DNA from: a virus
Length of the DNA stretch: 23,864 bases
Strand: one strand, 5' to 3'
UHGV virus genome: UHGV-1462696
Made by a program: the position numbers and the translations under genes. Each line of letters begins with the position of its first letter. The first letter of the stretch is position 1. Below the pieces are notes generated by a model that saw only the letters and a program-made list of their open reading frames with translations, was not told where the DNA came from and did not search any database. Shown here in pieces: positions 2,628-23,550 of the stretch.

Positions 2628-3368
2628 TTATTGCTTATTTTTCACGGCTTCAGCAATCATTCTCTCAGCCTGTGATGTATATGTTTTTCGCAAGGGTTCA
2701 TGGCCCATATGCAATACGATACTTTCCTTTTCTTTTTCCTTTAATTCTTGTATGAGATTATTTATTTTGGCCTCCCTATCTTCAAGCATTCTGGCGGACT
2801 TTTCTGCCTCAATCTTTAACGCTGCAGCCACTGATTGCATGTTTTCCAGCTTCTTATTCAATTCCAAAACCTTATCGGAGAGCCTATCTCTTTCCGACGT
2901 TAGCTCACCCATCCTGGCCTGTGACTCCGTAATTCTTTCCTTCATAGCCTGTATGTCTTTTTCGGCGCCAGTCTTAACTTTGTCGTATGTCACATCGTGC
3001 TTTGCCTTCAGGCGCTGCAGGCGTGTGGCGCGATGAATGCGCTTGGCCTTCCGGTGGTTCTCTATCGAATCGTAATTATCAAGAGGTTTGGCTTGCCACT
3101 TTGAAATCACGTTGTTGATCCAGGGCATGCCGCCGCACAGGATTATTGCTGAAACACATGGGAATGCTAATACCGTTTTCCAACTGCTATTGCTGGAAAT
3201 GTAGGTGATCTTGTCGATGATGCTGGAGTCGCTGAGGAGTAAGTATAAAATCGACTTCCAGTTAAAGGCGCACCATGACAGTGCGAACGCTCCAAACACT
3301 GGATTTCTGACCCTTTGCGCAGCGGTATTAACGGTTGAAGATAGGTATTCTTTAAGTGATTCAAGCAT
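2628..3368 (-). CDS. Membrane-anchored coiled-coil protein of unknown function (accessory; candidate abortive-infection / superinfection-exclusion effector)
   Basis: 246 aa; two hydrophobic segments in the N-terminal ~90 aa (FGAFALSWCAFNWKSILYLLL; VLAFPCVSAIILCGGMPWI) followed by ~130 aa of heptad-like charged sequence; AT-rich relative to flanks by eye; AAGGG SD upstream of ATG at 3368; opposite strand to the late operon. Confidence 0.6.
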   Translation of the reverse strand: MLESLKEYLSSTVNTAAQRVRNPVFGAFALSWCAFNWKSILYLLLSDSSIIDKITYISSNSSWKTVLAFPCVSAIILCGGMPWINNVISKWQAKPLDNYDSIENHRKAKRIHRATRLQRLKAKHDVTYDKVKTGAEKDIQAMKERITESQARMGELTSERDRLSDKVLELNKKLENMQSVAAALKIEAEKSARMLEDREAKINNLIQELKEKEKESIVLHMGHEPLRKTYTSQAERMIAEAVKNKQ

Positions 3369-3398: not shown

Positions 3399-3413
3399 CT
3401 ACCTTTAAGGTAA
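3399..3413. promoter_or_regulatory. TTACC-N5-GGTAA-type palindrome (CTACC-TTTAA-GGTAA) in the promoter of the 246-aa gene
   Basis: 31-45 nt upstream of the ATG at 3368; on the gene strand the site reads TTACCTTAAAGGTAGAAT, so the -10-like TAGAAT overlaps it. Confidence 0.5.
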
Positions 3414-3527: not shown

Positions 3528-3899
3528 TTATTGCTCGCTTAGCTTCTGCTTCAGCAAGTAACCTTCGAGCATCCAGATTTTGTTTACAGCATTCTGCCGG
3601 GCAATCTTCCGACCAATTTCTGCATCAAAGTTTTCATGGCTTGCACAGGCGCTTTCTCCGGTTACAGTAAATCCGTTGCGCAGCACCAGAACGCAGAAGG
3701 TCAGCAGAGAAAGTGATTCGTGCGGCTGGTAGTTTACCTCTCCGCCAGTATGTTTCGCTTTTATGGCTTTGCCAAAGGCACCATCTTCTGCTGTGAAATA
3801 TGCCTCCTGAGCAATAATGCCTTCGATATGGTCTGGCGTAACGCGCGGTGCCGTTTTGCCTTTCTCAACGATTTCTTTTTCGATTTGCTTGTCGTTCAT
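3528..3899 (-). CDS. Hypothetical small phage protein (possibly Gp49-like family)
   Basis: 123 aa; strong SD AAGGTGA 4-5 nt before ATG at 3899; central motif CVLVLRNGFTVTGESACASHENFD resembles small conserved phage proteins; family assignment is from memory only. Confidence 0.55.
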   Translation of the reverse strand: MNDKQIEKEIVEKGKTAPRVTPDHIEGIIAQEAYFTAEDGAFGKAIKAKHTGGEVNYQPHESLSLLTFCVLVLRNGFTVTGESACASHENFDAEIGRKIARQNAVNKIWMLEGYLLKQKLSEQ

Positions 3900-4097: not shown

Positions 4098-4174
4098 TGG
4101 CGTGGCATGCAGGATTCGAACCTGCGACCAACCGCTTAGAAGGCGGTTGCTCTGTCCAACTGAGCTAATGCCAC
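4098..4174 (-). tRNA. tRNA-Arg (anticodon UCU), phage-encoded
   Basis: Reverse complement gives a 77-nt cloverleaf: acceptor GTGGCAT/ATGCCAC, D-arm GCTC-AGTTGGACA-GAGC, anticodon stem ACCGC/GCGGT with loop CTTCTAA (anticodon TCT), T-arm GCAGG-TTCGAAT-CCTGC, discriminator G, encoded CCA. Confidence 0.85.
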
Positions 4175-4496: not shown

Positions 4497-4511
4497 TTAC
4501 CTGAAAGGTAA
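4497..4511. promoter_or_regulatory. TTACC-TGAAA-GGTAA palindrome (17-mer identical to the site at 23536) in the divergent region between the tRNA and the portal module
   Basis: Read directly; 91 nt upstream of the ATG at 4602. Confidence 0.55.
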
Positions 4512-4822: not shown

Positions 4823-6502
4823 ATGGCGGAAACAACTAAAGAGCGATTGAACAAACAGTTCGCACAACTTGAAAGCGAGCGTCAGTCGTTCGAGCCGCAC
4901 TGGCGCGAGTTGAGTGATTACATCAACCCGCGTGGTTCCCGCTTTCTGACTTCTGAGGTCAACCGTAACGATCGACGCAATACACGCATTATTGATTCGA
5001 CCGGGACTATGGCGGCGCGCACTCTCGCCAGCGGCATGATGTCAGGCATCACAAGCCCCGCGCGTCCGTGGTTTCGCCTGGCTACGCCAGATCCTGAAAT
5101 GATGGATTATGGCCCTGTTAAGTTGTGGCTTGAGGCGGTGCAGAACCGCATGAACGATATGTTCAATAAGTCGAATCTCTATCAGTCGCTGCCGCAGTTA
5201 TACGGAAGCCTCGGCACATACAGCACTGGTGCAATGGCAGTGCTGGAGGATGACGAGGACATCATTCGCACAATGCCATTCCCGATAGGCAGTTACTACC
5301 TGGCTAACTCACCTCGTGGCAGTGTGGACACCTGTTTTCGCAAGTTCTCTATGACTGTTCGTCAGCTTGTTCAGGAGTTCGGGCTAAATAACGTCAGCGA
5401 ATCCGTAAAAAGCATGTGGGAAAGCGGCACTTACGAGAAGTGGATTGAAGTGATGCATTCGGTTTACCCGAACATTGACCGCGATACATCGAAGCTGGAT
5501 AGCAAGAACAAGCCATTCAAATCGGTTTATTACGAGGTTGGCGGCGATAACGACAAGTTGTTGCGTGAGTCCGGATTCGATGAGTTTCCAATTATGGCTC
5601 CGCGCTGGGAAGTTAACGGCGAAGATGTTTATGGATCATCATGCCCGGGTATGCTGGCGCTTGGACCTGTTAAGGCATTGCAGCTTCTCCAGAAGCGCAA
5701 GTCGCAGTTGATTGATAAAGCCACCAATCCGCCGATGGTTGCTCCGACTTCCCTCAAGAATCAGCGCGCCTCCCTTCTTCCTGGCGACATCACGTATATC
5801 GATCAGATTACTGGTCAGGATGGTTTCAGGCCTGCTTATCTGGTTAACCCCAGTACAGCAGATCTGGTGGCAGACATTCAGGACACTCGCCAAATCATTA
5901 ACAGCGCCTACTTTGTCGATCTGTTCATGATGTTGCAGAACATCAATACCCGCTCGATGCCTGTTGAAGCGGTGATCGAAATGAAAGAAGAAAAACTTTT
6001 GATGTTGGGGCCGGTTCTGGAGCGTCTGAACGACGAATGTCTTAATCCTCTCATTGATCGCGCTTTCTCGATGATGGTGCGTAAAAACATGCTGCCGCCA
6101 CCGCCTGACGCGATGGAAGGCATGCCCCTGAAGGTCGAATACATTTCCGTCATGGCTCAGGCGCAGAAGTCTATCGGCCTGTCCAGTCTGGCGTCCACGG
6201 TTAACTTCATTGGTCAACTTGCGCAAGCGAAACCAGAAGCTCTCGACAAACTCAACGTTGATCAGGCGATCGATGCATTCGCTGATATGTCCGGAGTGTC
6301 TCCAACCGTCATTGTTCCGCAGGAACAGGTTGAGCAGGCTCGCCAGCAACGGGCACAGCAGCAACAGCAGCAACAAATGATGGCGATGGGGATGGCGGCG
6401 GCACAGGGTGCCAAGACGCTAAGCGAAGCTAAAACTTCGGATCCGAGTGTTTTGTCAGCTATGGCGAATGCAGTTAGTGGTCAGGGTGGGCAATCACAAT
6501 GA
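4823..6502 (+). CDS. Portal protein (T7 gp8-like head-to-tail connector)
   Basis: 559 aa; position after terminase; Q/M/A-rich C-terminal tail (QQQQQQQMMAMGMAAAQG) resembling the T7 gp8 C-terminus; strong SD. Confidence 0.75.
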   Translation: MAETTKERLNKQFAQLESERQSFEPHWRELSDYINPRGSRFLTSEVNRNDRRNTRIIDSTGTMAARTLASGMMSGITSPARPWFRLATPDPEMMDYGPVKLWLEAVQNRMNDMFNKSNLYQSLPQLYGSLGTYSTGAMAVLEDDEDIIRTMPFPIGSYYLANSPRGSVDTCFRKFSMTVRQLVQEFGLNNVSESVKSMWESGTYEKWIEVMHSVYPNIDRDTSKLDSKNKPFKSVYYEVGGDNDKLLRESGFDEFPIMAPRWEVNGEDVYGSSCPGMLALGPVKALQLLQKRKSQLIDKATNPPMVAPTSLKNQRASLLPGDITYIDQITGQDGFRPAYLVNPSTADLVADIQDTRQIINSAYFVDLFMMLQNINTRSMPVEAVIEMKEEKLLMLGPVLERLNDECLNPLIDRAFSMMVRKNMLPPPPDAMEGMPLKVEYISVMAQAQKSIGLSSLASTVNFIGQLAQAKPEALDKLNVDQAIDAFADMSGVSPTVIVPQEQVEQARQQRAQQQQQQQMMAMGMAAAQGAKTLSEAKTSDPSVLSAMANAVSGQGGQSQ

Positions 6503-20668: not shown

Positions 20669-21229
20669 ATGAAGGCAATTATATTTTTTGTTTCAATATT
20701 GATGTCTGCATTTTCTTTTGCAGGGCAAAATGTTAAATGCGAACTTCAATACTTTGGAGATAACGATAAATTTAAGGTAACTCAGTTTTCTTTTATGGGG
20801 ATTCCATCTGATTCATACCTTTATACCTGTGCCGACTGTGGAGGCATCCAGATAAACGTGTTCCCATCTATTCAGACTGTTGCTTCCTACTCATTTGAAA
20901 ACAACATTGATTTCGAAAGGAAAATCAATGCTGAATACAACAGAAAAGACATAGCTAAACTTGAGATGGAAAACGTTACTCAAGGCGGGAGAATAAAATA
21001 TTCAATCACCGATACTGGTTTGGCAGAGTTTTACCCAGAGGGCAAAAAGATAAGCTACCTCTACTTTTTAGCCAAGCAACAAAATGGTAAAGAACAAGTA
21101 GGTTATTCAGGATTTGTTACCTCTAACGGGGATAAGTCATGCTCAATTATTGCGACATATCCAGGAAAAGAAATTTCTTTTCTGGGAAGTAAATCTTTAA
21201 GCTACTTTATGAATCATATATCAATGTAG
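20669..21229 (+). CDS. Secreted or periplasmic hypothetical protein (moron)
   Basis: Signal peptide MKAIIFFVSILMSAFSFA then GQN, no lipobox; strongly AT-rich codon usage unlike the flanking virion genes; starts 2 nt after the upstream stop, so likely co-transcribed with late genes. Confidence 0.6.
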   Translation: MKAIIFFVSILMSAFSFAGQNVKCELQYFGDNDKFKVTQFSFMGIPSDSYLYTCADCGGIQINVFPSIQTVASYSFENNIDFERKINAEYNRKDIAKLEMENVTQGGRIKYSITDTGLAEFYPEGKKISYLYFLAKQQNGKEQVGYSGFVTSNGDKSCSIIATYPGKEISFLGSKSLSYFMNHISM

Positions 21230-21230
21230 C

Positions 21231-21242
21231 GTGACATGTCAC
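21231..21242. repeat. Perfect 12-bp palindrome GTGACATGTCAC, copy C
   Basis: Read directly; 2 nt after the stop of the 186-aa gene and immediately before a terminator. Confidence 0.9.
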
Positions 21243-21266
21243 AGGCCGCTTTCGCGGCCTTGTTTT
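21243..21266 (+). terminator. Intrinsic terminator (AGGCCGC-tttc-GCGGCCT followed by GTTTTT) ending the + strand late transcript
   Basis: Read directly. Confidence 0.7.
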
Positions 21267-21304
21267 TAACGAATGCCACCGCCGCCCGGGCGGGAATCCG
21301 CAGA

Positions 21305-21329
21305 CACAAAAAAGCCCGCAACGCGGGCT
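21305..21329 (-). terminator. Intrinsic terminator on minus strand (AGCCCGC-gtt-GCGGGCT followed by TTTTTTGT), overlapping the stop of the YafO-like gene
   Basis: Read from the reverse complement. Confidence 0.6.
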
Positions 21330-21874
21330 TATTCCTTCCATTTATCAGAAAAAAGATCTTCTTCTAAAGGCATTGGTTCTGTTTTTGTTTTCTCAAAGAA
21401 TTGATAACTGATAGTGATTGCTTCCTCTTTAAACTCTTCTTGCTCAGTTATGTTGTGGGCATCTGCGTCAACAAAAAACATAACCAGCGCATCACGATTG
21501 TGATTTACCGAATAAACTAAAAAGCAATCACTTGTTGGTATGCATTTTACTTGCACAGACGCTATATTTTTCCATGCATCCCAAGATGATTTTTTACCAG
21601 TGTGTTTTTTATCACTATCTTCTGGAATATAGTCTTGGTTATCGACATGAGTATGCCTGACATTTAGTTTAAGCATTTCTGTCGGACGAGCAAATGCAGC
21701 ATCTTTACCAAGAGATGGATGGTATCCCGTTTTCCAATACTGGGTAAAGGCATCAGATACTTTCTTCAGCTCAAGATCAGATGCACAAAGGGCCGAGAAA
21801 TTTTGCGTATGCAATACTCGACCCTTATATCTGACAATTTGATTTTTATCATTCTGCGACGCAGACGAACTCAT
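21329..21874 (-). CDS. YafO-like toxin candidate (ribosome-dependent mRNA interferase family) with acidic C-terminal tail
   Basis: Motifs FTQYWKTGYHPSLGKDAAF, NVRHTHV and CFLVYSVNHNRDALVMFFVDADAH parallel YafO segments as recalled (FISYKRDGVLPDIFGRDALY; VAHIHL; AHLVYCQGAFDEQAWLLIAILKPEPH); AT-rich; AAGGA SD before ATG at 21874; the track ORF extends to 21901. Confidence 0.5.
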   Translation of the reverse strand: MSSSASQNDKNQIVRYKGRVLHTQNFSALCASDLELKKVSDAFTQYWKTGYHPSLGKDAAFARPTEMLKLNVRHTHVDNQDYIPEDSDKKHTGKKSSWDAWKNIASVQVKCIPTSDCFLVYSVNHNRDALVMFFVDADAHNITEQEEFKEEAITISYQFFEKTKTEPMPLEEDLFSDKWKE

Positions 21875-22028
21875 AATTTTCCTTATTGTTACGAGAATCA
21901 AAGAAAGCTCGGGATACGCGACTTGCGTGATCTTTTGTCATAGTAACTTTTACGTACTCTACGCTTCCATTGAAAGAACGTCTTGCGGCAGCTTGCGCTC
22001 TACGCATCTGCAATTTTTCGTTTCGCAT
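21849..22028 (-). CDS. Small basic ORF (59 aa, below the track cutoff); candidate antitoxin or regulator
   Basis: Hand-translated from the reverse complement: MRNEKLQMRRAQAAARRSFNGSVEYVKVTMTKDHASRVSRAFFDSRNNKENYEFVCVAE; GAGG SD 7 nt upstream; overlaps the start of the YafO-like gene by 26 nt in another frame; sigma70-like promoter TTGGTT-17-TGTAAT upstream. Confidence 0.3.
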   Translation of the reverse strand: MRNEKLQMRRAQAAARRSFNGSVEYVKVTMTKDHASRVSRAFFDSRNNKENYEFVCVAE

Positions 22029-22088: not shown

Positions 22089-22103
22089 TTACCCTTGAGG
22101 TAA
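22089..22103. promoter_or_regulatory. TTACC-CTTGA-GGTAA palindrome adjacent to the predicted promoter of the small-ORF / YafO-like unit
   Basis: Read directly; 61-75 nt upstream of the ATG at 22028. Confidence 0.5.
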
Positions 22104-22175: not shown

Positions 22176-22886
22176 TCAGAAGAACCCAGCCTTGTCGTTG
22201 ATGTACTCCGCGTGAGTCTGGATATCACGCAGGCATTTGCTCACACCAACGATGTAGCAAAACATGGTGGTCAGCTCCGCCGCCGCGCCCGATACATCGT
22301 GCCCGTCTTCCTGCAACTGGTTCAGCAAATTCATCAGCAGTGAGTTCTCCGTCAGGCCGAGAACACCAGACGGAGAATGAATCAGACTGCGGTAGCCGGG
22401 CTTCAGTGGGGCACTGTAGGTTTTGTTCTCTATCTTCATTGCCTGCATCACTGCTGATGCTGTGGCGTTGGCTACCTGGTCGGCAACCATCTTTATGCGT
22501 TCTTCCTGCGGGAGCGAGTTTTTAATGTAACTTCCGGTGCGGCGGATCTGAGGAAGAACCTCACCTGTAACCCATTTACGAAAGCGGTAGGGGATAGTGC
22601 CTGGTGTCACCGCATCGCGGCAGCGGAGGATCAGTGTGTAGAGGCCTGACTCGGAGATGATGTTGATCTCTTTTACTCGGCTGTCAAAAATTGCACGATG
22701 TTCATGCCCTATGTTGAACATAGACCTTTCATCATCATCCAGTTTTTCAAGTGCTTGGGTGACGTTTTGGATACGCAGCGCACTACAAACGTCTTGGGCT
22801 ACAAACCATGGTTGGCCATCGATAATGATGGAACGGATAGGGTTAACAGATTCAAATTTGAAGATGGCAGTTTGAGCATTAGCCAT
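22176..22886 (-). CDS. ant: Phage antirepressor-like protein (N-terminal Bro-N domain plus C-terminal Ant-type domain)
   Basis: N-terminal AIFKFESVNPIRSIIIDGQPWFVAQDVCSALRIQNVTQALEKLDDDE is a typical Bro-N signature; ATG at 22886 with GGAG SD is preferred over the GTG at 22901 used by the track. Confidence 0.75.
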   Translation of the reverse strand: MANAQTAIFKFESVNPIRSIIIDGQPWFVAQDVCSALRIQNVTQALEKLDDDERSMFNIGHEHRAIFDSRVKEINIISESGLYTLILRCRDAVTPGTIPYRFRKWVTGEVLPQIRRTGSYIKNSLPQEERIKMVADQVANATASAVMQAMKIENKTYSAPLKPGYRSLIHSPSGVLGLTENSLLMNLLNQLQEDGHDVSGAAAELTTMFCYIVGVSKCLRDIQTHAEYINDKAGFF

Positions 22887-23041
22887 GGTGGTTATCTCCA
22901 CTTAGTGATTTTAATCACCACCGCAACGCCAATTACTGGTGGTGAACTGGACAAGGTTGGCGTACCGGCCTAAGTGGTACCGGCGTCCTTTCGGACCCCT
23001 GCCCAGCCCACCATAATTCGGATATGGCTGTGCTTAACGCA

Positions 23042-23065
23042 TAAAAAAACCACGTCTGGCGTGGT
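23042..23065 (-). terminator. Intrinsic terminator on minus strand (ACCACG-ccaga-CGTGGT followed by TTTTTTTAT)
   Basis: Read from the reverse complement; downstream of the truncated ant paralog. Confidence 0.6.
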
Positions 23066-23155
23066 ATGCGCCACTTAGTAACTCGGGACGCCAATCCCGG
23101 CACTGGATTTTGCCAGTGCCCGATTACTATGGCACAAGAGGAGTGCGATGTAAAT

Positions 23156-23170
23156 TTACCGCAAAGGTAA
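23156..23170. promoter_or_regulatory. TTACC-GCAAA-GGTAA palindrome embedded in the 30-nt loop of a 10-bp inverted repeat (AGAGGAGTGC 23137-23146 / GCACTCCTCT 23177-23186)
   Basis: Read directly. Confidence 0.5.
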
Positions 23171-23201
23171 ATATAAGCACTCCTCTTGGTAATTTCAAAT
23201 C

Positions 23202-23459
23202 TTATCTGGTTTGTTTTCGTAATTGTTCGGCACAATAGTCGAGATGTGTTTGCAGATCCCGCATAGACATCTGTGAGCTGGTGACGTAGTTAATCAGTGC
23301 AGTCAGTTCGGCAAGTGGGCCATCGACATTAAATCCATCCTTATCGAGATCCCGGAGTAATTTCATCAAGTGCGATCCCTCCACCAGTGACCTGACGCCT
23401 CCCGGCGTGTGAATCCTTTCGGTAAATCCGTCTTCCAGTGGATAGTGATACTGCTGCAT
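23202..23459 (-). CDS. Stand-alone paralog of the antirepressor C-terminal domain (about 85 aa)
   Basis: ERIHTPGGVRSLVEGSHLMKLLRDLDKDGFNVDGPLAELTALINYV...RDLQTHLDYC aligns with SLIHSPSGVLGLTENSLLMNLLNQLQEDGHDVSGAAAELTTMFCYI...RDIQTHAEYI in the ant product; ATG at 23459 with GGAG SD; the track ORF begins at 23525. Confidence 0.6.
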   Translation of the reverse strand: MQQYHYPLEDGFTERIHTPGGVRSLVEGSHLMKLLRDLDKDGFNVDGPLAELTALINYVTSSQMSMRDLQTHLDYCAEQLRKQTR

Positions 23460-23535
23460 CTTATCTTCTCCATGTAATAACTGTATATTTATACAGTAGC
23501 AAATAATTTGTTTGCTATCCAGCACGTTTTGCGAA

Positions 23536-23550
23536 TTACCTGAAAGGTAA
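23536..23550. promoter_or_regulatory. TTACC-TGAAA-GGTAA palindrome in the divergent region between the ant paralog and the tail fibre gene
   Basis: 17-mer TTACCTGAAAGGTAATA identical to the site at 4497; 105 nt upstream of the tail fibre ATG. Confidence 0.55.

Follow-up and report, generated by a model that had tools for sequence, protein, structure and literature searches.

The Ant/Rep pair of phage SPC32H is said to form a lytic switch, described by Kim & Ryu in 2013 and by Kim et al. in 2016 with the structures PDB 5D50 and 5D4Z; the former being the solved structure of Ant with the repressor Rep. Two papers describe SPC32H Ant as a tetramer that takes Rep tetramers apart and binds the C-terminal domain of Rep (PMC9638917, PMC9986798), and the ant gene is under LexA control according to a summary given in PMC7380047. 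In P1 the ant gene of the immI region is controlled by the repressor plus the C4 RNA (PMC8198154); the order of P1/P7 immI is c4 antisense RNA, icd and ant1/2, and the region is also repressed by C1. In Gifsy-1, with the order isrK-orf45-anrP-isrJ, the small RNA IsrK activates the translation of anrP in trans (Hershko-Shalev et al. 2016, PMC4825925). The combination of isrK, C4 and a Bro-N gene that is described below is also known from APSE phages (PMC7313666), and in coliphage vB_EcoP_ZX5 (ZX5) the overexpression of ORF4 lowered the lysogens from 1e9 to 1e6, an approximately 1000-fold drop (PMC9782041). The same ZX5 paper mentions neither the small Ant, which is annotated as hypothetical, nor LexA, isrK/C4 or the domain homology.

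Here we analyzed a stretch of 23,864 nucleotides from the virus genome UHGV-1462696, which as a whole is called the window. Its region around the two genes described below is probably a two-tier locus for antirepression ('anti-immunity') in a prophage of the Uetakevirus type (epsilon15/phiV10/SPC32H-like), in which two separately controlled antirepressors share one effector domain.

The small Ant gene and its putative control sites

The gene for the smaller protein and the sites upstream and downstream of it are the following:

23202..23459, minus strand: small antirepressor Ant, 85 aa, ortholog of SPC32H Ant, PhiV10p24 and epsilon15p19
23481..23496, no strand: predicted LexA (SOS) box CTGTATAAATATACAG, CTGT-N8-ACAG, 21 nt 5' of the small ant ATG
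23536..23550, no strand: palindrome TTACC-N5-GGTAA, putative Rep operator 5' of small ant, kept in SPC32H
23156..23170, no strand: another copy of the TTACC-N5-GGTAA palindrome, also a putative Rep operator, directly adjoining the -35 of the putative isrK promoter
22089..22103, no strand: third nearby copy of the TTACC-N5-GGTAA palindrome, separating the Bro-N gene from the next small ORF

The short ORF runs from the ATG at 23459 to the stop at 23202-23204 and has, as the first-pass annotation had already noticed, its own Shine-Dalgarno sequence (GGAG, 10 nt 5' of the ATG). Using phmmer its 85-aa product matched PDB chain 5d50_E ('Anti-repressor protein') over residues 2-84 with E=1.4e-46, and the identity to SPC32H Ant, which with about 86 aa is of the same size class, was 86.7% by tblastn and about 87% by pairwise alignment. 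The protein also falls into phrog_450 (E=7e-48), a family listed by PHROGs as function unknown, and a Pfam scan of small Ant gave DUF724 below threshold as the sole match, which we treated as chance. A GTG start at 23525 (107 aa) was considered for the short ORF and rejected, as it would span the LexA box and the homologues and the PDB chain are all 85–86 aa long.

The neighbourhood resembles that of SPC32H as well, with the tailspike gene adjoining small ant in the same position, the same LexA box and a Rep of the same family in the relatives. SPC32H differs in having the small Ant only, whereas here a second Ant-domain protein with a putatively RNA-controlled leader follows; the Salmonella relatives SPC32H, epsilon15 and SPN1S all carry small ant alone with a terminator directly after it and are without isrK, C4 and the Bro-N gene. 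As an ortholog of the characterized LexA-controlled SPC32H Ant, the short protein is, judged from its sequence, the antirepressor that is already known to be triggered by SOS in epsilon15-like prophages, which agrees with one of the options raised earlier, an independent antirepressor module. That the short ORF could be a decayed pseudogene fragment is contradicted by its dN/dS of about 0.06, and decay of either gene was ruled out by dN/dS and prevalence, with small Ant present in 529 and the Bro-N cassette arrangement in 468 of 5426 complete E. coli genomes. The antirepressor pair is common, in about 9–10% of complete E. coli genomes.

The LexA box together with its flanks, TACTGTATAAATATACAGTT, agrees at 18 of 20 positions with the E. 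coli consensus, and its core TACTGT...TATACAGT is unchanged in an alignment with phiV10, TL-2011b, one E. coli prophage and SPC32H. A sigma-70 scan at its thresholds called no promoter at the LexA box of small ant.

For the TTACC-N5-GGTAA palindrome we found 8 matches in the window with 0.27 expected. In SPC32H the copies form a 3+3 cluster around rep, and in phiV10 four of the five copies are placed around rep, with two on either side; this clustering suggests that the motif is a putative operator to which Rep may bind. Among six phages the half-sites of the copy at 23156-23170 are invariant and its 5-nt spacer is variable. The Rep gene itself falls outside the window. Rep homologues were found in every E. 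coli relative, and the E. coli phage records with a small Ant are also among the matches to Rep homologues; phiV10p40 matches chain 5d50_A with E=4e-42, and the E. coli Rep shares only 42% identity with SPC32H Rep.

The Bro-N fusion and the spread of the Ant domain

The second gene encodes a larger protein:

22176..22886, minus strand: Bro-N::Ant-like fusion antirepressor, 236 aa, with Pfam Bro-N and 5d50_E matches

Its ORF starts with the ATG at 22886 and ends with the stop at 22176-22178. A Bro-N domain (Pfam PF02498) covers aa 17-112, approximately 22551-22838 (E=9.6e-20, 71.5 bits against a cutoff of 25.6), and the Ant-like C-terminal domain aa 155-236, approximately 22179-22424, with residues 155-231 matching 5d50_E at E=1.2e-13. 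The protein further matches phrog_130 ('anti-repressor Ant') and phrog_450, and by these matches and by analogy it appears to be an antirepressor. A structure model of the fusion (AlphaFold2, 19-row alignment) was poor, with a pLDDT of 62 and a pTM of 0.37, and we regarded it as uninformative that a Foldseek search of this model against the PDB gave no match at E<=0.001, 5D50 being missed as well. The search returned weak SKI/Dachshund-like matches, which judged by their aligned length concern the N-terminal domain.

ZX5 ORF4 is the ortholog of the 236-aa protein and is located in the same position after a small Ant of 98.8% identity. The two proteins are 81% identical overall and the last approximately 160 aa are identical, but in ZX5 ORF4 the Bro-N domain begins with approximately 75 aa that belong to a different mosaic type. 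The repressor-binding domain shared by the Bro-N protein would explain the phenotype of ORF4 overexpression in ZX5.

The homologous C-terminal domain that had been proposed for the two proteins was borne out by pairwise alignment: BLASTP pairs short residues 2-75 with long residues 155-228 without gaps (32/74 identities, 43%, E=2e-16). In the domain search phrog_450, phrog_15539 and the 5d50_E match turned out to be common to both proteins. The two Ant domains represent two old clades, with 35–44% identity in every within- and cross-genome pairing and 17 alignment columns that are invariant over both. In the numbering of small Ant these are Y4, I16, H17, G21, L25, S29, M32, L35, D41, G42, V45, A50, E51, Y58, T71, H72 and Y75. 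No within-genome homogenization was seen in the identity matrix, and therefore the short gene is not a recent truncated copy; on the same matrix we also rejected gene conversion between them and a duplication of recent date. The earlier view that the short ORF is a truncated paralog is thus not supported, as the protein is the ortholog of SPC32H Ant and the primary, ancestral form rather than a truncated decoy.

It is accordingly highly improbable that the short protein is a stand-alone C-terminal copy that modulates the long one as a dominant-negative or decoy, be it through mixed inactive oligomers or by competition for the repressor. In SPC32H, epsilon15 and SPN1S its orthologs work as SOS antirepressor without any Bro-N partner, it has its own predicted LexA-controlled expression signal, and members of the two clades share about 40% identity whichever are paired, with no co-evolution within genomes. 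Co-assembly with the fusion is physically conceivable, as SPC32H Ant is reported to act as a tetramer (PMC9638917), the two domains are homologous and the genes are adjacent, so that co-transcription is possible without a terminator before isrK; yet in phiV10 the short gene is intact and the long gene frameshifted within the Ant-like domain, the opposite of what such a role predicts. As phiV10 is viable despite this frameshift, Tier 2 of the locus, the Bro-N::Ant module, is dispensable for growth.

In order to follow the spread of the Ant-like domain, a word-indexed search with the C-terminal 114 aa was replaced by an exhaustive HMM search, as the former returned only 28 proteins, most of them partial, and the full-length cluster was not among them. 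The domain is rare, with 65 clusters in 1.84 billion proteins, and is joined to Bro-N, AntA, Rha and ORF6N N-termini. Its fusion to four types of N-terminal module points to a portable effector and fits the domain shuffling known for Bro-N/KilA-N/Rha/AntA/ORF6N regulators. Unlike in those regulators, the structure of the C-terminal module is solved here and its target, Rep, is known, and the module also exists as a free-standing primary antirepressor in the same genome.

The isrK and C4 RNAs and the leader of the fusion gene

Between the two genes the following elements are located:

23170..23198, minus strand: promoter-like site TTGAAA-17-TATATT directly after the ant stop, 10/12 matches
23126..23154, minus strand: promoter-like site TTTACA-17-(TG)CATAGT, predicted by scan and taken as P_isrK
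23043..23119, minus strand: isrK-like sRNA, Rfam RF01394, full length, 67.2 bits against a gathering score of 50
22935..23018, minus strand: C4-like antisense RNA, Rfam RF01695, full length, 66 bits against a gathering score of 45
22887..22934, minus strand: leader of the Bro-N gene with the pairing elements a2 and b2

A terminator and a structured 3' region had been assigned to the short ORF by the first-pass annotation. Both are real, with the structured RNA region beginning 83 nt past the short ORF stop and the intrinsic terminator of isrK formed by 23049-23065 plus a T-run, but they are isrK and C4 and not part of the short gene. The putative P_isrK ends 7 nt ahead of the Rfam-defined 5' end of isrK at 23119 and its -10 region TTGTGCCATAGT is unchanged in six of six phages; with this conserved promoter-like site directly 5' of isrK, isrK and C4 therefore belong with the downstream gene. 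For the TTGAAA-17-TATATT site both hexamers are promoter-like in five of six aligned phages, and its predicted start lies inside the palindrome 23156-23170, which has one of the two promoter-like sites on each side. A terminator scan found none between the ant stop and isrK. Both RNAs score above the Rfam gathering scores in five relatives as well.

The pairing elements were read by hand from the RNA sequences. In isrK these are a1 (UUGGCGU, 23088-23094) and b1 (CUAAGUGG, 23071-23078), and the leader repeats them as a2 (UUGGCGU, 22926-22932) and b2 (CUAAGUGG, 22898-22905), with b2 overlapping the Shine-Dalgarno sequence GGAG (22896-22899) of the Bro-N gene. C4 carries b', the loop of hairpin 2 (CCACUUAG, 22970-22977), and a', the adjacent unpaired junction (ACGCCAA, 22957-22963); its predicted fold has -43.6 kcal/mol and leaves both elements unpaired. 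Element a' is complementary to a2 and b' to b2, and a1 and b1 of isrK are complementary to the same C4 elements. RNAduplex on the whole RNAs resulted in meaningless long duplexes that unfold known hairpins, and we therefore used duplexes of the elements: cognate b'/b2 pairs have -8.6 to -12.0 kcal/mol and non-cognate pairs -3.7 to -8.1. Both series, a1/a'/a2 and b1/b'/b2, co-vary at all three sites and fall into four specificity types among the phages.

The likeness to P1/P7 immI is apparent in a C4-family RNA located 5' of an antirepressor gene on the same transcript, in two short complementary elements of which one lies over the ribosome-binding site, in a sequence-type specificity that differs among relatives and in a repressor-operator-like site at the promoter. 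In contrast to immI, the antirepressor of the window is a fusion of Bro-N with an SPC32H-type Ant instead of P1 Ant, C4 is preceded by an isrK sRNA that has a terminator of its own, and there is no icd-like coupled ORF in the window, and therefore C4 would mask the antirepressor's own Shine-Dalgarno sequence. With Gifsy-1 the locus shares an isrK with its own putative promoter and terminator directly 5' of an antirepressor gene; in Gifsy-1 this terminator is leaky and allows read-through into the antirepressor gene. Gifsy-1 isrK pairs with the downstream 'orf45' region, the counterpart of which is the C4-like RNA here, and by position the key residues G28 and G31 of Gifsy-1 IsrK would lie within a1 UUGGCGU, with the pairs G28:C162 and G31:C159 corresponding to a1:a'. 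Unlike in Gifsy-1, the frames that run across C4 terminate at 22970 or 22933 and leave 84 or 47 nt up to the ATG at 22886, and with the orf45-equivalent frame ending this far upstream translational coupling cannot apply. The upstream coupled ORF used by Gifsy-1 and P1 (orf45 or icd) is thus missing in the window.

Several features could be taken to mean that the long gene forms, with its RNA leader, a moron cassette that is decaying or selfish and has no role in the switch, the similarity being a recombination relic: the cassette is absent in the Salmonella relatives, frameshifted in phiV10, internally deleted in the variants P0138 and P0139 and separated from ant by a 1.1-kb insertion in TL-2011b, and its Bro-N N-terminus is mosaic. 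We nevertheless give this explanation almost no credence. With a dN/dS of 0 to 0.21 the Ant-like domain of the fusion is, at the codon level, under purifying selection, the RNA elements co-vary with their pairing kept, the arrangement is retained in phages of three host genera and in 468 of the 5426 E. coli genomes, and in ZX5 there is a functional phenotype (PMC9782041).

With an identity of only about 40% between the two Ant domains, the fusion may have a preference for another repressor. It might aim not at the resident Rep but at the repressors of heteroimmune prophages or of an immune host, as a weapon of anti-immunity or cross-induction acting in trans, with the isrK/C4 type serving as self/non-self label as in P1 versus P7, which we consider unlikely. 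Its Ant-like domain indeed belongs to a clade apart from that of the resident small Ant, members of this separate clade also occur in other elements as well as on proteins of the AntA, Rha and ORF6N types, close relatives show at least four mutually non-cognate a/b specificity types, and cross-acting antirepressors are documented in Gifsy and Fels prophages (PMC7380047). However, ZX5 ORF4 with its identical C-terminal domain lowers the lysogeny of ZX5 itself (PMC9782041), which carries a phiV10-type Rep, and in phages of E. coli, Enterobacter and Klebsiella synteny links the fusion to small Ant and to a Rep of the same family.

A proposed two-tier switch and its meaning

The two-tier reading preferred here would work as follows. 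In Tier 1, LexA would keep the promoter of the 85-aa Ant shut. Upon DNA damage Ant would be made, bind to the C-terminal tetramerization domain of Rep and dismantle the Rep tetramer, a reaction that was shown for the SPC32H ortholog and from which we infer it for the 85-aa Ant.

Tier 2 would be a mobile module of the P1 immI/Gifsy-1 isrK type, consisting of the promoter(s), isrK, C4 and the Bro-N protein, the C-terminal 80 aa of which are an old paralog of Ant. Elements a' and b' of C4 would pair with a2/b2 of the leader and cover the Shine-Dalgarno sequence, leaving the fusion untranslated, and as isrK bears the same target sequences in a1/b1 it could titrate C4 and open translation. Pairing and covariation were computed, and the outcome for translation is proposed from what is described for P1 and Gifsy-1. 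Since the ant stop and isrK are not separated by a terminator, transcripts of ant that are induced by SOS would contribute RNA containing isrK. Together with the Rep-operator-like palindrome at the promoters of the module, this suggests that Tier 2 would fire after Tier 1 and reinforce the switch. Tier 2 may also act on superinfection of an immune cell.

A more speculative division of labour, to which we assign a low probability, would leave DNA damage and the resident Rep to the 85-aa Ant, with the fusion as a self/non-self anti-immunity factor gated by a variable isrK/C4 'barcode'. If true, the fusion would fire only without cognate C4 or when C4 is titrated, so that the phage overrides or cross-induces related prophages, and with Ant domains on AntA, Rha or ORF6N proteins or in small chromosomal islets, unrelated elements would be able to eavesdrop on repressors of the Uetakevirus type or to hijack them.

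In summary, the two-tier locus links three separately described systems, SPC32H Ant, P1 c4 and Gifsy-1 IsrK, and is a tidy, incremental addition to the known biology of phage switches that does not overturn the current understanding. The short gene is still annotated as 'hypothetical' despite a solved structure and mechanism for an 87%-identical protein, and finding its repressor-binding domain in the neighbouring Bro-N protein, which is otherwise opaque, provides a concrete, testable target for the latter. The locus is also a clean natural case of domain shuffling, in which the carriers of one repressor-binding domain are of the Bro-N, AntA, Rha and ORF6N types. Prophage induction would then integrate two inputs, the SOS response via LexA and an sRNA circuit via isrK/C4.

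Two antirepressor genes sharing a C-terminal domain

The two genes are encoded on the minus strand at the coordinates given by the first-pass annotation, and the homologous C-terminal domain that it had claimed for their products was borne out by BLASTP, which aligned residues 2-75 of the short protein with residues 155-228 of the long protein without gaps (43% identity, E=2e-16).

23481-23496: near-perfect LexA box, TACTGTATAAATATACAGTT, 21 nt before the short-gene ATG, lining up with the SPC32H box
23202-23459, minus strand: short ORF, 85 aa, ATG at 23459, stop at 23202-23204, GGAG 10 nt 5' of the ATG
22176-22886, minus strand: long ORF, 236 aa, ATG at 22886, stop at 22176-22178, Bro-N at residues 17-112 (Pfam, E=9.6e-20)

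In the PDB the short protein has a single match, full-length and with E=1.4e-46: 5D50 chain E, an 86-aa 'Anti-repressor protein', which is the Ant of the Salmonella phage SPC32H (gene ant in KC911856). The two are 86.7% identical (tblastn). SPC32H Ant is reportedly a LexA-controlled antirepressor that inactivates the non-cleavable repressor Rep. Ant is produced upon LexA cleavage and inhibits the repressor via protein-protein contact (PMC7380047), the contact site being the C-terminal tetramerisation domain of Rep (PMC9986798). The window stems from a Uetakevirus prophage similar to epsilon15, phiV10 and SPC32H; a 1.5-kb region is 98% identical to E. coli chromosomal prophages and phage HEMP4, and in all Uetakevirus relatives compared a divergent tailspike or tail-fibre gene adjoins the short gene, whose counterparts PhiV10p24 and epsilon15p19 are annotated as hypothetical. 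A mere gene fragment is ruled out by strong purifying selection (dN/dS ~0.06 against SPC32H and Tyrion) and by the presence of the gene in 529 of 5426 complete E. coli genomes.

The long protein matches 5D50 chain E with its residues 155-231 (E=1.2e-13), as well as phrog_450. Its identity to coliphage vB_EcoP_ZX5 ORF4 is 81% overall and complete over the last ~160 residues. The ZX5 paper (PMC9782041) calls ORF4 an antirepressor with a Bro-N N-terminus and reports a drop of lysogens from 1e9 to 1e6 PFU/mL upon its overexpression. LexA and SPC32H are absent from its text, and the passages covered name just ORF4, ORF12 and ORF21 as related to lysogeny, with no small ant gene and no RNAs. The Ant-like domain of the long gene is under purifying selection, with zero non-synonymous changes against TL-2011b (dS=0.29) and dN/dS ~0.2 against Tyrion and Klebsiella, and its DNA occurs in 468/5426 complete E. 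coli genomes. The long gene is not indispensable; internally deleted variants exist, and the phiV10 ortholog is frameshifted inside the Ant-like domain. This Bro-N 'anti-immunity' gene of phiV10 (p23/p22, L001 3712-4400) reads ...LLMN followed by RTTGMMYQARRRS and a stop, the annotated p22 being the out-of-frame remainder. The Bro-N genes of TL-2011b and ZX5 are intact, with a Bro-N N-terminus of another mosaic type. Downstream of the long gene lies cargo without known function (20669-22028), which varies among relatives (L002, L004 and the ZX5 locus):

21849-22028, minus strand: ORF, 59 aa, phrog_6685
21329-21901, minus strand: ORF, ~181-190 aa, phrog_1651
20669-21229, plus strand: convergent ORF, 186 aa, signal-peptide-like N-terminus, phrog_11983

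In an alignment of 11 Ant-like domains 17 columns are invariant. Identities are 61-87% among small Ants, 54-78% among fusion domains and 35-44% in every pairing of a small Ant with a fusion domain, both within and across genomes. This rules out a recent truncation as well as homogenisation, as pairs within one genome are no closer than pairs across genomes; the two sets are old clades. When 1.84 billion representative proteins were searched exhaustively with an HMM, just 65 clusters had the domain (E<=0.001), most of them free-standing proteins of 85-130 aa. Those with the domain fused at the C-terminus have Bro-N, AntA, Phage_pRha or ORF6N in front of it, and it therefore behaves as an effector module that moves between the usual 'antirepressor' N-termini. 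That the short protein acts as a decoy or dominant-negative of the long one, as had been proposed, is physically conceivable, but the phylogenetic distribution counts against it, and we favour its reading as an SPC32H-type antirepressor. In Klebsiella chromosomes, one free-standing protein of the fusion clade (P0136, 95 aa; L011-L013 3001-3288) has an AlpA-like gene on one side and a HicAB-like toxin-antitoxin pair on the other. This small islet, close to folD, might represent a satellite or island remnant that includes an antirepressor.

The isrK and C4 RNAs between the genes

The first-pass annotation had assigned a terminator and a structured 3' region to the short gene, which did not hold, as these are two RNA genes of the downstream unit. 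The a and b elements listed here were taken by hand from the printed RNA sequences.

23043-23119: isrK (RF01394; Rfam, full length, 67.2 bits, above gathering score)
23049-23065 plus T-run: isrK terminator, the one already seen in the first pass
23088-23094: a1, second hairpin loop of isrK, same sequence as a2 (UUGGCGU)
23071-23078: b1, in isrK, same sequence as b2
22935-23018: C4 antisense RNA (RF01695; Rfam, full length, 66 bits, above gathering score)
22970-22977: b', loop of C4 hairpin 2, CCACUUAG
22957-22963: a', single-stranded junction directly after C4 hairpin 2, ACGCCAA
22926-22932: a2, long-gene leader, UUGGCGU
22898-22905: b2, long-gene leader, CUAAGUGG, overlapping the GGAG of the ribosome-binding site

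Two promoter-like sites precede isrK: TTTACA-17-(TG)CATAGT, which stops 7 nt short of its 5' end, and, a little farther upstream, the stronger TTGAAA-17-TATATT. As isrK has its own terminator and these promoter-like sites, and as the -10 of TTTACA-17-(TG)CATAGT is invariant in six phages, the RNAs are part of the downstream transcription unit. The pair is also present in phiV10, TL-2011b, ZX5, Enterobacter phage Tyrion and one Klebsiella phage; it was not found in SPC32H, where ant is directly followed by a terminator and then a convergent gene. The isrK-C4-leader segment (22887-23201) has DNA matches of ~71-76% identity in 245 phage records, among them ~150 Stx1/Stx2-converting lambdoid phages plus Yersinia and Hafnia phages, and is a widely travelling regulatory cassette.

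The two unpaired C4 segments a' and b' are complementary to the long-gene leader, and all three copies of both elements co-vary across six phages. The b element occurs as CUAAGUGG, CUAAAAGG, CUACAAAGG or CUAAGCGGG, each matched by its C4 loop, and in Tyrion a is UUGGUCU and a' AGACCAA. Cognate b'/b2 duplexes reach -8.6 to -12.0 kcal/mol versus -3.7 to -8.1 for non-cognate ones. The pairing follows the same logic as in P1/P7, where C1 represses the ant operon and C4 antisense RNA is needed too for full repression (PMC8198154). The APSE phages share the arrangement of isrK, C4 and Bro-N (PMC7313666). The pairing also fits the isrK locus of Gifsy-1, where IsrK pairs in trans with the 'orf45' region and turns anrP translation on, with residues G28 and G31 being essential and G28:C162 and G31:C159 being compensatory pairs (PMC4825925). 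Judged by position alone, G28/G31 would fall in a1 and C162/C159 in a', which suggests that the 'orf45 binding' is isrK-C4 pairing. In contrast to P1 icd and Gifsy-1 orf45, translational coupling is missing in the window, since frames crossing C4 end 47 or 84 nt before the long-gene ATG, and C4 would mask the antirepressor's own SD. The 'Ash family protein' of ZX5 (L010 2255-2368) overlaps the C4-like RNA, as does Gifsy-1 orf45; the corresponding frames of the window (22933-23074) are broken well before the antirepressor ATG, and such protein calls probably reflect RNA conservation and not a conserved protein.

Rep and its putative operator

The rep gene lies outside the window, and the E. coli phage records with small Ant are also among the Rep-homolog matches. 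PhiV10p40 matches Rep of the complex (5D50 chain A) over its whole length (E=4e-42); E. coli and SPC32H Rep are 42% identical, and the C-terminal block, with rough domain limits, is somewhat better kept (50%). The palindrome TTACC-N5-GGTAA has 8 matches in the window at <=1 mismatch versus 0.27 expected:

526-540, 544-558 and 3399-3413
4497-4511, after the tRNA-Arg
21031-21045
22089-22103, after the long gene
23156-23170, with a promoter-like site of the isrK unit on either side, half-sites invariant
23536-23550, upstream of the ant LexA box, also in SPC32H

As it clusters around rep in SPC32H (three copies between rep and cro, three just past rep) and phiV10 (4/5 copies flank rep, two each side), we take it as the probable Rep/Cro operator of these phages, with copies at several promoters. 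The tRNA-Arg (anticodon UCU; 4098-4174, minus strand) stands between minus-strand ORFs (2628-3368, 3528-3899) and a long run of plus-strand ORFs starting at 4823; synteny with SPC32H suggests that early and structural genes meet in this region.

A model for two-step induction

As shown for its orthologs, the small ant gene would be kept off by LexA, and upon DNA damage Ant would be made and Rep disassembled. The downstream unit would be held off at translation by C4 and possibly also at transcription by Rep, and isrK-containing RNA would lift the C4 block, both RNA steps drawing on the pairing and its covariation. Such RNA could come from P_isrK and from ant read-through, because no terminator was found between ant and isrK. 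A second antirepressor, whose Rep-binding domain is of the same kind, would then be produced in the cell; it may lock in induction or have a part in superinfection or cross-induction.

The individual parts are all of known kinds (SPC32H Ant, ZX5 ORF4, P1 c4, Gifsy-1 IsrK, Bro-N modularity). In the literature searched we found no description of the homology that links small Ant to the C-terminal part of the Bro-N antirepressor next to it, of the Ant-like domain on four carrier domains, or of the three-site isrK/C4 covariation in Uetakeviruses. PHROGs v4 lists the small Ant family, phrog_450, under 'unknown function', and the small Ant WP_001188254.1 (L002 4142-4399) is a 'hypothetical protein' in E. 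coli RefSeq and GenBank records. The two-antirepressor locus is real and common, and the annotation gap for small Ant, despite the solved SPC32H Ant-Rep complex, affects ~10% of complete E. coli genomes.
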